Source: Candidatus Aenigmatarchaeota archaeon (GTDB taxonomy: Archaea; Aenigmatarchaeota; Aenigmatarchaeia; GW2011-AR5). Taken from it: a DNA stretch of 64,000 bases. The DNA lies in assembly GCA_016187335.1 (NCBI GenBank), contig JACPJW010000001.1, positions 160,001 through 224,000 of the forward strand, written 5' to 3'. The translations under genes were made by a program, and so were the position numbers. This document shows, piece after piece, positions 48,261 to 54,628 of the stretch; position 1 is the stretch's first letter, and every line of letters starts with the position of its first letter. The notes under the pieces are model-generated. The model saw only the letters and a list, made by a program, of their open reading frames with translations. It made no database searches and was not told the DNA's origin.

Positions 48261-48284
48261 GCCTTAGGAAAATTAAAGGCTAGC
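48261..48284 (-). other. 3' strand of the pre-23S processing BHB (pairs with 54029-54052)
   Basis: GCTAGC CTTT AAT TTTCCTAAGGC pairs with GCCTTAGGAAA GAAG ATA GCTAGC. Confidence 0.85.
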
Positions 48285-48679
48285 ATTGGCGTAGGAGAGC
48301 GTGGGCTGAATAGCTCGCCGAAGCTTGCTACTTACACCCCGCTTCCATACCTGGTCGTCTTGCCAGTGCCGACTGCCTATTTTCGAGAGCGGCTTGGGGC
48401 TTAGATGCTTTCAGCCCTTATCCGCGTATGGCGTAGCTACCCGGCAATGCCTTGTCAGACAACCGGTACACCAGAGGCCACGGAAGGATGTTCCTTTCGT
48501 ACTTATCCTTCCTTTCTCTCAGGCAAAAGCACCTCCAGCAGATATAGACCAAACTGGCTCACACCGTTCTGAACCCAGCTAACGTGCCCTTTTAATCTGT
48601 GAACTCCAGCACCCTTGGCGGCTGCTGCACCGCCAGGAGAGGACGAGCCGACAGCGACGCCGCAACGCGCGGGGTCGAT

Positions 48680-48763
48680 TTGTTCTCTGGATTCTGCGAT
48701 CTAAGTTTGACTACCTCAGGCTATTCCAGCTGAGAATATGTAGACAATGTCGCAGATCCGGAT
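48680..48763 (-). other. 23S BHB intron A (84 nt, H89 loop, about Ec 2477/2478)
   Basis: Central GTTC/GAAC, bulges TT|A and AA|A. Confidence 0.85.
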
Positions 48764-48791
48764 AAGAACTCTCACCCGCCACGACACCATT

Positions 48792-48891
48792 ATAGGGTAA
48801 AGTAAACCTATAGCTAGTTGCTATCTAAATCTAACTAAATCTAATTTGTTAGCAGACCCAGACTGCGACTTAGCTTCCCGGCTTACTTCAT
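48792..48891 (-). other. 23S BHB intron B (100 nt, Ec 2449/2450)
   Basis: GGGG/CCCT central helix, AT|A bulges, 11-bp inner helix. Confidence 0.9.
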
Positions 48892-49722
48892 ATCCCCGGG
48901 GTAGCTTTTTGAGACCGAAGTGCTCATAATCTGAAGCCTTTCGAGCTTCATTGCGTTCAGCAACCCAAAATTAGCATGAAATTTTCTGACCATCTCCTCG
49001 CCGTAAATAGCGAAGGAGTAATTCGATATTGAAGAGCATTTTATTTCAAGCCCTTCAAGAACCGAAATTATGAACCTCAATGAACTCTCGTCTTTCTGGG
49101 TGAAAGTTATCCTCGCCCGCTTGTTCTTGACGTTTGCGGAAGGAACATGGCCTTCCGCGTCGAAGAATCCGGCAATATAGGACTTCTGGATTTCTATATC
49201 CGAAGCCCTGATTATCTCCGGAACCGACTTGTGAAGTTTCCCGTCAACCATCATACTGATCATGTAGTATAACGGCTTGGACGAGATGTCAAGGTACTTT
49301 TCACCTATATGCTTCTGGTACCTTACGTGCGGGGTCACTTCGAAAATCCGCTGGAATATATCGCGCAGACTTTCGACCCAAGTTGAGTTTGCAGAATCAT
49401 AAATCCGCACCCAGTGCTTTCCTTTCGAGCGAATCAAGGAACCGTCCCGCATTGCGCCTAGAAGATATGCCAATTGCAGTGTTAGTTCTTCTGGCACTTT
49501 AACTCGTGTATATGCTGAACCGGTTCCTGATTTGAGGTGCGTTACAGAACCAATAATTTCAGGATATTTCTCCGCCAGAAAGGAAAGCGGGAAGGAATTC
49601 AGTCTTTTCCACTTCCTTATCTTGCTGCTTTCTATGCGAATTTCCATCAATCTTGGTTCCAGGATCTCTGCTCTTACCGTAGTGCCGGTTTCCAGAATTC
49701 CCTGGAGTAACTTAAATTTCAT
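48883..49722 (-). CDS. double-motif LAGLIDADG homing endonuclease (intron C)
   Basis: LAYLLGAMRDG and YIAGFFDAEG; the linear stop codon lies outside the intron. Confidence 0.9.
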   Translation of the reverse strand: MKFKLLQGILETGTTVRAEILEPRLMEIRIESSKIRKWKRLNSFPLSFLAEKYPEIIGSVTHLKSGTGSAYTRVKVPEELTLQLAYLLGAMRDGSLIRSKGKHWVRIYDSANSTWVESLRDIFQRIFEVTPHVRYQKHIGEKYLDISSKPLYYMISMMVDGKLHKSVPEIIRASDIEIQKSYIAGFFDAEGHVPSANVKNKRARITFTQKDESSLRFIISVLEGLEIKCSSISNYSFAIYGEEMVRKFHANFGLLNAMKLERLQIMSTSVSKSYPGDMK

Positions 49723-49782
49723 TGAGGCTTTTTGGTCAGAGTAGAATATAAGGATTGCTGAACTGGGGTGAACACTTCGCGT
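48909..49782 (-). mobile_element. 23S BHB intron C (874 nt, about Ec 2432) with a homing endonuclease ORF
   Basis: GAGA/TCTC central helix, AA|A bulges, inner CGAAGTGTTCA/TGAGCACTTCG; alternative boundary 48910-49788. Confidence 0.8.
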
Positions 49783-51542: not shown

Positions 51543-51729
51543 TTCTCGCCCTACTAATGCTACTCCCACCAGGATCCTCTTTGCTGCAAGGTCCACACTT
51601 CCTCACGGAAACGCTTCTGCCCTCGCAGCACGCCTCCTTACCACTTGCGATTGCTCACAAGTCCGCAGTATCGGTGGTTTCCTTAGCCCCGTCCATTTTC
51701 TCCGCCTTGACTCTCGATGGGTCCGCTAT

Positions 51730-51893
51730 TTCGCGGAAAGCCCCTTTTTCTTGTAAGAAAAAGTCCCTTGGGTTCAAAAAGAACTTTAACTCGCTTCGCT
51801 CGGATATTATTTTTAATAATATAGCGAGCATTAGCGAGCCTTGTGTCTTTCTTTTCCCAAGGGTTTTCTTTCTTCAGAAAGAAAAGGCTTTCT
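51730..51893 (-). other. 23S BHB intron J (164 nt, GTPase centre H44, about Ec 1095/1096)
   Basis: CGCG/CGCG central helix, inner GAAAGCC/GGCTTTC. Confidence 0.88.
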
Positions 51894-52206
51894 TACGCGT
51901 TGTTTAAATGGTGGCTGCTTCTAAGCCAACATCCCCATTGTCTGAGAATCAGGACCAGATTCAGTGACACTTAGAAAACACTTTGGGACCTTAACTGCAG
52001 TCCGGGTTCGTTCCCTCTCGGATACCAGAATTACTCCGGCACCCTCACTCCCGCTCACGCGATAACGGATTCGGAGTTTGACAAGGCAGGTGGGGATCTC
52101 TCCCCTTGGCTGTCTAATCAGTGCTCTACCCCGTTATCTGCTAAGAGCGAGGCTGTCCTGAGAGACATTTCAGGAGGAACCAGCTATCACCAGATTCGAT
52201 TGGCTT

Positions 52207-52275
52207 TTGGTGTTCGCGAATAGCATACTGAATCTGCGAACAGCAAATTCAGAATAGCTTTAGCTATTCTCGAAT
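52207..52275 (-). other. 23S BHB intron K (69 nt, about Ec 782/783)
   Basis: GGTG/CACC central helix, AA|A bulges. Confidence 0.88.
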
Positions 52276-52381
52276 TTCACCCCTAACCCCAGGTCACCCG
52301 AAGGGTTTGGACCACAACCGGTAACAGGCCTCCACCCGCCTTTCGGCAGGCTTCGCCTTGCCCAGGGCTAGATCATCTGGT

Positions 52382-53284
52382 CGCCCGGTCAGAGAATGAG
52401 TTTTATGAGGTTTGTATGAATATCAGATTTTGTTTTGCCCAATTCGCTTGGCTTTAAGCCATATGAATTGGCAGCGAATTTCAGAAGTTGTGATTTTGGA
52501 ATTCCCTTCCATAATCCATTTCCGCTAATTTTCACGCCTTCAACAAAGCCGATTTCCCTTTCAAATTTCTTTATGTTCTCAGGTTTTCTAAGCAACACTG
52601 CATCTTTCAGCATTGTTGGCTTGTACCCAAGTTTTTCAAGCAACCCGAAGTATTGTTTCCTAAGATTTGGATGTTCTGAATAAAGTTTTACGCATCTGTC
52701 GAAACGGAAACCGTATCTTGCCTTTCCGATATTGAAGATTACAGTTCCATCTCCGGTGAATGCGTATCTTAGAAATTGCTTTCCGAGTTCAGAGTTGCTT
52801 AAGATGAACTCCGGAATTATTGTTCCCGGATATTTGTTTTCTGCTTTGTTGTAGGCGAGCGTTCTGTAAGACGGCGAATAACTAATGAGCTCTGCGGCAG
52901 CCTTTCTGCTTATTCCACTCTTGACTTCCCATGAACCTTTGTAGATTCTTTTTCGAAGTTTAAGATGGAAAATCTCGAAGATGAGCCTTTCAAATTCCGC
53001 AACAAGTTCATTGGAGTTAGAAGTGAAAGAAATACTCCATAATCCCGATTTCTTGTTGCACCAAAGGCTGCCGTCTGTAATCAGAAGCCCTATTAGTTGA
53101 GCCATCTTGCCTTGTCTTTCATCAATCTCATTAATTTCGGTTTTGCCGAAATTTTGATTAATGAAATTTAATTTCATGCTTGTTATTAAGGCGAAGCGGG
53201 CTTATCTTGCTTTCGTGTCGAAGACCGAAAGAAAGAATATGTCCCGCTGAGCCAGATAACAAACCTCTAACTCACTCCCCGACT
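52382..53284 (-). mobile_element. 23S BHB intron L (903 nt, about Ec 676/677) with a homing endonuclease ORF
   Basis: CCCG/CGGG central helix, 13-bp inner helix. Confidence 0.9.
52389..53177 (-). CDS. double-motif LAGLIDADG homing endonuclease (intron L)
   Basis: LIGLLITDG and FLRYAFTGDG; stop codon inside the intron. Confidence 0.88.
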   Translation of the reverse strand: MKLNFINQNFGKTEINEIDERQGKMAQLIGLLITDGSLWCNKKSGLWSISFTSNSNELVAEFERLIFEIFHLKLRKRIYKGSWEVKSGISRKAAAELISYSPSYRTLAYNKAENKYPGTIIPEFILSNSELGKQFLRYAFTGDGTVIFNIGKARYGFRFDRCVKLYSEHPNLRKQYFGLLEKLGYKPTMLKDAVLLRKPENIKKFEREIGFVEGVKISGNGLWKGIPKSQLLKFAANSYGLKPSELGKTKSDIHTNLIKLIL

Positions 53285-54628
53285 TTCGGGTCTTATTCCA
53301 GTGACTTCCGCGCTTTCACACGGGGCGCCTCGCTGCCTGCGCGCGCTCGCTTTCGCTGCGGTTCCCTTAGTTAACCTTGCCACTAGAATAAACTCCCTGG
53401 CCCGTTTTTCAAAACGGACACCGCTTTTGTTTCTCTTGCGAGAACGTTAGGCGGCTAACTGTAGCTGCCAGGTTTCAGGTTCTTTTCAGCACCTATTACG
53501 GTTGCTTTTCAGCTTTCCGTCGCCGTACTAATGCGCTATCGGACTTGACGAATATTTAGGATTGGGTCTGAATGCGACCCGCGTTCCGACTCCAAATCCG
53601 AGGAATCGTACTCTGGATACCCGCCGTTGCACTTCCTGCCTTCCCTTACGCGGCTATCACGCTGTGTCGCGCCCCTTTCCAGGGGTCTTCGGGTCAGCAG
53701 GCAAGAGCAGGCACGGGTCCAAACACCACATTGCCCCGCACTCGTCGCGCAGGGCTTCGGTTTGTCCTGTTCCCTTTTCACTCGCCGTTACTGGGGGAAT
53801 CGAATTTCTTTCTTTTCCTGCCCTTACTAAAATGTTTTAATTTTGGGCGTTCGCCCTTCAGAACAGACTTCCGCATCTTTCAGATGCGGGATTTATCTCT
53901 GAAGTTGATGCCTATCGGCATTGGGCAATCTCCGGTTCAAAGGCTGCATGCGCCTACCCGGAGCTTATCGCAGCTTGCCACAACCTTCGTCGCATGTCAA
54001 GCCAGGCCATCCTCCTGACAGCTTGGGAGCTAGCTATCTTCTTTCCTAAGGCGTTCGCCGCTAACAAAGCTACACTTTAGGCATAGCTTTGCAAACGGCT
54101 AACTATTGCTCCAGCCTCGACCTGTGACTGCATCATATGCGTGAATAATCAGTATAATTATTTCGCTCTGCATTTCACCAATCAGCACGCTGACCGGCTC
54201 ATGAAATGAAAGGCAGACTCTGCTTTGAAACAAAATCCGCCGTTTTTATCAAATGGAAAGCCAAGTTCGCACGTTTTCCTGGATTGGCATGCAAACCTCT
54301 GATTTCCTTTCTGCTTTGGCAAACCGTTTTGGTACAACTTTTTTGAAAAGTTGTTCAGAGAAAGAACAGCATAGCGTCACGGCACAAAACGAGATAATTC
54401 TGCGCCACCTACACTGCAACCCGCACGCCCTGTCACGGCGCACAAAGCCACTCTGAACAGCTTCGGTTAACCAATCAACATGAATGTAAATTTTGAACTT
54501 TTCCCTTTTGAAGTTCTACAAATAGCGCAGGATTCCTGACCCTGACACGGTAACCTACATTATACAATATCAAATATTAAAAGATTTTTTCGTAGATTCG
54601 TGGGTTAAATTAAACTACAGAAGAAGAA

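Follow-up and report, generated by a model that had tools for sequence, protein, structure and literature searches.

How can an archaeon build its ribosomes when half of its one detected 23S ribosomal RNA (rRNA) gene appears to consist of introns? This question is raised by a stretch of 64,000 nucleotides (nt) from a Candidatus Aenigmatarchaeota archaeon (positions 160,001 to 224,000 of contig JACPJW010000001.1, assembly GCA_016187335.1), the whole of which is called the window in the following. The genome comprises 1.01 Mb in two contigs and is 90.8% complete, and a genome search detected just one 23S gene in it. An original prediction, made by reading the letters of the window, described this gene as interrupted by 12 bulge-helix-bulge (BHB) introns that make up half of its length. 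The analysis presented here arrives, with a probability of about 85%, at a single, functional 23S gene of a groundwater Aenigmatarchaeota archaeon, interrupted by twelve archaeal BHB introns. Those parts of the original prediction that are accessible to sequence analysis were all supported, with the reservations given below.

Twelve insertions in one 23S rRNA gene

The gene, on the minus strand of the window, was matched over the complete archaeal large-subunit (LSU) rRNA model RF02540 (model positions 1-2987; 1886 bits), with 5,764 nt of DNA covering the 2,987 model positions, and is the sole RNA gene that Rfam finds in the window. Insertions were defined by MAFFT alignment of the gene to the three shortest, (nearly) intron-less genes of relatives (L004, L005 and L006), and the exon map was completed by the BHB register (Table 1). 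The alignment gave exactly the 12 insertions that had been predicted, in the reverse of the predicted order because the gene lies on the minus strand. Ten of the 12 predicted lengths were also recovered. The intron given as 47 nt was corrected to 46 nt, a register that has a perfect BHB and whose product aligns gap-free. At intron 10, a 5-bp helix permits two registers: the product of the preferred 876-nt register equals the relatives in length, whereas the predicted 874-nt register is less likely because it leaves two extra A residues in a conserved run. The summed intron length accordingly moves from 2853 to 2,854 nt, or 49.5% of the gene, in line with the statement that half of it is intron.

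The 13 exons measure, from 5' to 3', 754, 106, 313, 187, 591, 20, 18, 310, 38, 124, 16, 28 and 405 nt, and their sum of 2,910 nt is the predicted spliced length. Micro-exons of 18, 20 and 28 nt were found as predicted, the one given as 17 nt is rather 16 nt (17 nt being the alternative), and an exon of 38 nt is added to the list. Around every junction, the 20 bases to each side agree closely, and in many cases exactly, with those of the intron-less relatives. The insertions interrupt a conserved RNA gene, and their removal restores a homologue uninterrupted with respect to the three relatives and to E. coli. The sites and the junction flanks thus bear out the claim that splicing would restore conserved rRNA at the peptidyl-transferase centre (2449), helices H89, H84, H69 and H71 and the GTPase centre, names that we take to apply from the E. 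coli 23S map.

The ends of the gene were placed by the original prediction at 48273 and 54035, slightly off the ends of the model match, and these coincide exactly with the cuts predicted for a BHB in the flanking processing stem. This stem was read from the flanks and their cofold as a canonical hBHBh' structure (h, outer helix; h', inner helix), with an outer helix of 11 bp, a central helix GAAG/CUUU and an inner helix GCUAGC/GCUAGC; the excised RNA would run from 54035 to 48273.

Is the interrupted gene real, and is it the working copy? The 23S stretch occurs in groundwater metagenomes of several studies, and contigs of two DNA runs from two studies (X1 and X5) cover exon-intron borders at 100% identity. 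Because contigs from separate groundwater studies reproduce the borders, the interrupted gene is no assembly artefact. A decaying pseudogene or a mis-assembly, with a working 23S gene hidden in the unassembled 9% of the genome, would be compatible with an assembly of two contigs at 90.8% completeness; however, the exons keep conserved rRNA sequence intact, relatives share the architecture at the same sites and the organism's own 16S gene is built alike, so that such an explanation is scarcely credible.

Table 1. Features of the 23S rRNA locus, in window coordinates. Site, last base of the 5' exon in E. coli numbering (versus rrlH); central helix, exon strand/intron strand; ^, cut; h/h', base pairs of outer and inner helix. 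Introns are listed in rRNA order.
Feature	Position	Strand	Length	Site	Central helix and bulges	h/h' (bp)	Remarks
23S rRNA gene	48275..54038	-	5,764 nt				RF02540; 13 exons, 12 introns
Processing stem, 5' strand	54029..54052	-			canonical BHB		predicted cut between 54036 and 54035
Processing stem, 3' strand	48261..48284	-					predicted cut between 48273 and 48272
Intron 1	52382..53284	-	903 nt	676	CCCG/CGGG; AA^A / CG^A	0/12	inner stem at least 12 bp
Intron 2	52207..52275	-	69 nt	782	GGUG/CACC; AA^A / AA^A	0/4
Intron 3	51730..51893	-	164 nt	1095	CGCG/CGCG; UA^A / AA^A	1/11	GTPase-associated centre
Intron 4	51219..51542	-	324 nt	1287	3/4 pairs	6/12
Intron 5	50584..50627	-	44 nt	1917	3/4 pairs	6/3	H69 loop
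Intron 6	50491..50563	-	73 nt	1937	AGCG/CGCU; UA^A / AA^A	0/5
Intron 7	50345..50472	-	128 nt	1955	3/4 pairs	5/12	H71
Intron 8	49992..50034	-	43 nt	2272	3/4 pairs; AU^A / AU^A	8/2
Intron 9	49908..49953	-	46 nt	2310	UCAG/CUGA	6/10	H84; textbook hBHBh'
Intron 10	48908..49783	-	876 nt	~2430	UGAG/CUCA; AA^A / AA^A	0/2	or 48909-49782, 874 nt; weakest flanking helices of the set
Intron 11	48792..48891	-	100 nt	2449	GGGG/CCCU; AU^A / AU^A	0/11	peptidyl-transferase ring
Intron 12	48680..48763	-	84 nt	2477	GUUC/GAAC; UU^A / AA^A	2/2	H89
LAGLIDADG reading frame, intron 1	52389..53177	-	262 aa				rRNA strand; motifs ..ITDGS.., ..TGDGT..; PF14528, E = 1e-9
LAGLIDADG reading frame, intron 10	48883..49722	-	279 aa				motifs ..MRDGS.., ..FFDAEG..; PF14528, E = 8e-7

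Border geometry and its conservation among relatives

The archaeal BHB contains a central helix, in which bases -6 to -3 of the 5' exon pair with bases -6 to -3 of the intron, and two bulges of 3 nt, each of which is cut after its second base; an outer helix joins exon to exon (h) and an inner helix joins intron to intron (h'). When this motif was scanned for around the alignment borders, the best or joint-best candidate was found within 0-3 nt of the border in all 12 insertions. All four central pairs are present in eight introns and three of four in the other four, and an inner helix of 2 to 12 or more bp was found throughout, whereas the outer helix is reduced to 0-1 bp in six introns (1, 2, 3, 6, 10 and 11, with intron 3 alone having the one pair). 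In 21 of the 24 cut sites, an A occupies the position after the cut, which is the third base of the bulge. In minimum-energy folds of junction constructs, the BHB pattern could be read in most introns; introns 3 and 6 fold differently.

The motif was evaluated against 2,000 decoy sets. The summed score of the 12 introns is 152, compared with 108.3 +/- 5.8 for the decoys (z of about 7.5) and a maximum of 132 in any of the 2,000 sets. Since 35 registers were tried at each site, single sites exceed the decoys by a moderate margin only; the clearest case is intron 9, whose score none of the 2,000 decoys reaches.

Do the relatives carry such insertions too? The 15 full-length 23S genes of relatives in the same order span 2,948 to 6,708 nt. 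Insertions of at least 25 nt number 16 in G020, 13 in G004, 12 in G022 and 10 in G014, with fewer in the other relatives, and the same sites recur. An intron-rich 23S gene is hence a trait of the lineage rather than of one genome alone, and the window gene, with relatives carrying 12, 13 and 16 insertions, is no record within its own lineage. In a loose BHB test, 85 of the 101 insertions in 13 genes of the order passed, compared with 36% of decoys. The 6.7-kb gene of G004 was observed to contain one true group I intron plus 12 other insertions, nearly all with BHB-like borders.

A survey of metagenome-assembled genomes (MAGs) of the DPANN archaea had been proposed as a check on the original prediction, and was carried out in the narrower form of a class-wide sample of 100 genomes. 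A 23S match was found in 60 of these. Complete matches span about 2.8 to 6.7 kb, and those of at least 5 kb include G004 (6,708 nt), G048 (6,501 nt), G086 (6,052 nt), G110 (5,995 nt) and G084 (5,337 nt); split matches extend over about 8.5 kb in G107 (C11:2847-11359) and about 5.8 kb in G041.

Introns at shared sites vary in length, from 46 to 494 nt at E. coli position 782 and from 47 to 453 nt at 2477, with the bulges kept. At five or more shared sites, compensatory double changes were found in the exon-intron central helix, and inner stems differ in sequence yet stay paired. CGCG/CGCG at the site of intron 3 becomes CGUG/CAUG in G022, and CGAG/CUCA at the site of intron 4 becomes UGAC/GUCA in G010; GCUG/CAGC is replaced by GCUC/GAGC at a further shared site, and at the site of intron 8 the exon strands AAAG, AAUU and AAAA are matched across relatives by CUUA, GGUU and UUUU. 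At the level of sequence, this covariation is the strongest evidence for selection on the exon-intron helix, as would be expected of a substrate of the tRNA-splicing endonuclease EndA. The site of intron 2 is occupied in eight relatives (46-494 nt), in four of which the same helix and bulges were recovered, and that of intron 12 in nine. The site and helix of intron 11 are common to G026, G022 and G004 (436-709 nt), and G014 (173 nt) is one base out of register. Sequence similarity extends into the introns themselves: intron 3 and the same-site intron of G015 share 82% identity over 151 nt, and for intron 1 the 3' half shows 72% identity to the large intron of G004.

These observations bear on whether the insertions could be kept in the mature rRNA as expansion segments. 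Nothing direct speaks for retention, apart from the resemblance of a variable hairpin near gene positions 140-180 to an ordinary expansion. The insertions, in contrast, split universally conserved strands (at 2449, in the H69 loop, in H89 and at 1095), are absent from close relatives, have BHB borders with covariation and in two cases carry protein genes, so that retention is extremely improbable. The hairpin itself (window ~53860-53905, gene ~135-180) was considered as a possible 13th intron and rejected: it measures 39 nt where the Rfam consensus has 4 nt, hairpins of similar length occur in relatives and its BHB score is at the decoy level. It is probably an ordinary variable helix.

Could some of the large insertions (903, 876 and 324 nt) instead be introns of the self-splicing group I or group II? 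In DPANN rRNA genes, BHB introns are found next to group I introns, and the latter, sometimes with LAGLIDADG genes, have been described in the LSU genes of Woesearchaeota, Pacearchaeota and Micrarchaeota, that is, in the same sort of host genes and organisms as here (Nawrocki, Jones & Eddy 2018, PMC6125680). A true group I match is present even in the relative G004 (L017 5204-5454, RF00028, 68.9 bits). That match, found with the same library of covariance models, serves as a positive control for the window, where no group I, group II or other ribozyme was matched in 48000-54300 even at E <= 10. In addition, long BHB inner stems are present at the borders of introns 1 and 4, and the archaeal LSU group I positions 1923, 1931, 2500 and 2593 (PMC6125680) coincide with none of the 12 sites. 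With no group I core detectable in the window 23S gene, unlike in the published DPANN cases, self-splicing of the large insertions is considered very improbable.

Endonucleases, splicing enzymes and joined RNA

The two largest introns each contain an open reading frame that matches LAGLIDADG_3 (PF14528) above the Pfam cut-off, with two motifs each and the acidic residues present; both are predicted to be intact double-motif LAGLIDADG homing endonucleases. In a structure search, one weak match was obtained for one of them (PI-PfuI, 1dq3, E = 0.0055) and none for the other. The reading frame of intron 10 has no stop inside the intron; it continues past the 3' splice site and through the 16-nt exon, ending 9 nt into intron 11. 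Upon circularisation of this intron, the 876-nt register (3 x 292) would give an endless frame, whereas the 874-nt register would give a stop after 286 codons. Intron 4 contains a reading frame of 78 aa without a Pfam match. In a related strain or species from another groundwater study (DNA run X7), an insert of 31 nt was observed exactly at the site of the 903-nt intron (52381/53284); this may represent either a mini-intron that remained once the endonuclease gene had been lost or one of independent origin.

Does the host have the enzymes to remove and rejoin such introns? Both the splicing endonuclease and the ligase are encoded. EndA is a single gene of 202 aa with N- and C-terminal domains (PF02778 and PF01974; 97 bits), and its nearest protein relatives are from groundwater MAGs of Candidatus Aenigmatarchaeota. 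Its best solved relative is the alpha4 enzyme of M. jannaschii (1a79, E = 6e-33). One RtcB ligase was found in the genome (528 bits).

RNA reads across the junctions had been named as a further check, and contigs of the groundwater metatranscriptome X20 bear on it. Five of them join 48679 to 48764, the exact junction of intron 12, and two join 50583 to 50628, the exact junction of intron 5; neither joint was found among those listed for three DNA runs, with 58 further joints beyond those listed. A second pattern in X20, zero depth over the two large introns with deep coverage of the flanking exons, was not counted as evidence, the presence of the organism in X20 not being shown.

Several observations weigh against a gene with twelve spliced BHB introns. 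Most X20 contigs are just 90-95% alike and not assignable to this organism; they may therefore come from relatives without introns 5 and 12, and their joints agree with splicing without proving it. Introns 1, 2, 6, 10 and 11 lack the outer exon-exon helix and are relaxed motifs, introns 4, 5, 7 and 8 have one central-helix mismatch each, and intron 10 by itself does not stand out from the decoys, its score being reached by 767 of the 2,000. The original prediction that each intron has a recognisable BHB was in this respect slightly generous, although the geometry at the borders and the score of the set support it. Alpha4-type EndAs are classically strict for full BHB motifs, and the enzyme of this genome, as judged from its sequence, looks alpha4-like. 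Alpha4-type EndAs with an extra loop have been described from several DPANN lineages whose tRNA genes are heavily disrupted, and the loop has been linked to broad specificity (Hirata et al., PMC5829648).

ARAGORN recognised no tRNA gene in the 64-kb window and 23 in the whole genome, 19 of them flagged with introns. The low number and the frequency of introns suggest that many tRNA genes are probably too disrupted for detection.

What if the insertions are cut at the BHB sites and the exons never joined? The mature 23S rRNA would then be divided into base-paired fragments, up to 13 in number, like the rRNA of Euglena or some bacterial rRNAs with intervening sequences. Fragmented rRNAs do exist elsewhere in nature, and no exon-exon junction read is assignable to this organism. 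Yet RtcB is present, and the products of EndA are its natural substrates by established biochemistry; pieces as short as 16, 18 and 20 nt, which belong to the peptidyl-transferase ring and H69-H71, would be hard to keep in position if free; and the metatranscriptome contains RNA contigs joined exactly at two junctions. Fragmentation is thus regarded as unlikely.

According to the spliced-intron reading, the gene would be transcribed as a precursor of about 5.8 kb, and a homotetramer-type EndA would cut both 3-nt bulges at the 12 introns as well as the BHB of the processing stem, giving 26 cuts per molecule. RtcB would then join the 13 exons into the 2,910-nt rRNA and would probably circularise the introns. 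The two large introns may be mobile now, or may have been so recently, by means of their putative homing endonucleases.

Dispersed repeats, known rRNA introns and implications

Where might the small introns have come from? Intron 9 has as its body a single copy of a palindromic repeat whose core is GAAACTTTTCAGAAAAGTTTC. At up to three mismatches, this core occurs at about 40 sites in the genome, of which one lies within the 16S gene and two lie within tRNA genes recognised by ARAGORN. Four matches at three places were found in the window, compared with 0.01 expected by chance; the copies outside the 23S gene lie at 5720-5740 and 17745-17765, with three mismatches each. The core of intron 7 is likewise built of modules that are repeated in the genome, 65 nt being 94% identical to a stretch at C2:525077 and shorter modules occurring at 12 further loci. 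In addition, intron 7 is 80% identical over 103 nt to positions 1930-2032 of the G014 gene, a stretch that by its position is apparently an intron at a different rRNA site.

The organism's own 16S gene (G000:C2:239678-242953, about 16 kb beyond the end of the window) was found to occupy 3,276 nt for a model of 1,478 positions, with about 10 insertions (50, 55, 23, 44, 34, 82, 664, 40, 599 and 38 nt) relative to three relatives. One of these holds the palindromic repeat of 23S intron 9. The 16S and 23S genes share one strand at a distance of about 26 kb, and are therefore unlinked.

Introns 7 and 9 being made of scattered repeats that are also present in tRNA and 16S introns, it is suggested that at least these two small introns derive from short elements scattered over the genome, and that new introns may arise when hairpin elements land in RNA genes. 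A bolder proposal, offered tentatively and at somewhat less than even odds, is that no other rRNA is known to carry protein-spliced introns as densely as the rRNA genes of Aenigmatarchaeota (12-16 per 23S gene; about 22 in the 16S and 23S genes of this genome together), and that the load is at present being built up by a palindromic mini-element, spread over the genome, which would become a BHB intron upon landing in any structured RNA gene.

How does this gene compare with known systems? BHB introns in archaeal rRNA genes, including those bearing LAGLIDADG genes, have long been known, and the window 23S gene is an extreme case of this already known kind of intron. To our knowledge, the counts found here (12 in 23S, about 10 in 16S and up to 16 in a relative) are above any reported for the Thermoproteales. 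That order was described as the archaeal lineage richest in rRNA and tRNA introns (Jay & Inskeep 2015, PMC4496867), and its 16S introns resemble those described here in their recurrent loci, their BHB cores, the coexistence of short hairpin introns and long introns bearing homing endonuclease genes, and their consequences for primers. Similarly, the 23S BHB introns of Crenarchaeota, known from Desulfurococcus mobilis (I-DmoI), Staphylothermus marinus, Aeropyrum pernix and Pyrobaculum (summarised in part in PMC4496867), are protein-spliced by the tRNA-splicing endonuclease and occupy conserved sites, and the large ones bear LAGLIDADG genes on the rRNA strand. Those genes contain one to a few introns each, however, as opposed to 12 with micro-exons down to 16 nt here, where the host is a mesophile-like groundwater DPANN archaeon with an alpha4-like EndA and where small introns stem from genome-wide repeats. 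Bacteria of the candidate phyla radiation (CPR) offer another parallel, being ultra-small groundwater symbionts in whose rRNA genes up to 16 insertions per gene, and up to 5.75 kb in one 23S gene, have been reported, many of the insertions with LAGLIDADG genes (Tsurumaki et al. 2024, PMC11270868; Brown et al. 2015). The CPR insertions differ in being bacterial and group I/II-like or unclassified rather than BHB introns cut by EndA, and the CPR survey counted just those of at least 100 bp.

No paper was found in which a single archaeal rRNA gene is described with 12-16 BHB introns, nor one in which BHB introns are counted for individual rRNA genes of DPANN archaea, which means only that none was found. 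The original prediction that the density exceeds what is known for archaeal 23S genes stands as far as this literature is concerned, and falls short within the lineage, where relatives equal or exceed it.

The introns were also predicted to break rRNA predictors and primers. Predictors were indeed misled: a genome-wide, filter-first search returned the 23S gene as a truncated place of 4,283 nt (G000:C2:208273-212555) and split the 16S gene into two matches. As the introns mislead the rRNA search in this way, primer sites would be expected to fail as well, and rRNA-based surveys would overlook such organisms or misinterpret them. The stripping of rRNA insertions is routine in groundwater studies (PMC7906910).

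What does such a gene mean for the cell that carries it? Maturation of the 23S rRNA would need about 26 endonuclease cuts and 12 exon ligations per molecule, plus any circularisation of the precursor, in an organism with a 1-Mb genome, and the cell would most likely be unable to build a ribosome without the tRNA-splicing enzymes EndA and RtcB. The locus illustrates the extent to which introns can invade an essential RNA gene that presumably remains functional. Of the loose ends, the connection of small rRNA introns with a dispersed hairpin repeat is the most interesting, as it bears on the origin and spread of archaeal introns. If the intron load is indeed still being built up by such a mini-element, these archaea would provide a natural system for watching archaeal intron gain, in cells whose ribosome synthesis would depend fully on EndA and RtcB.

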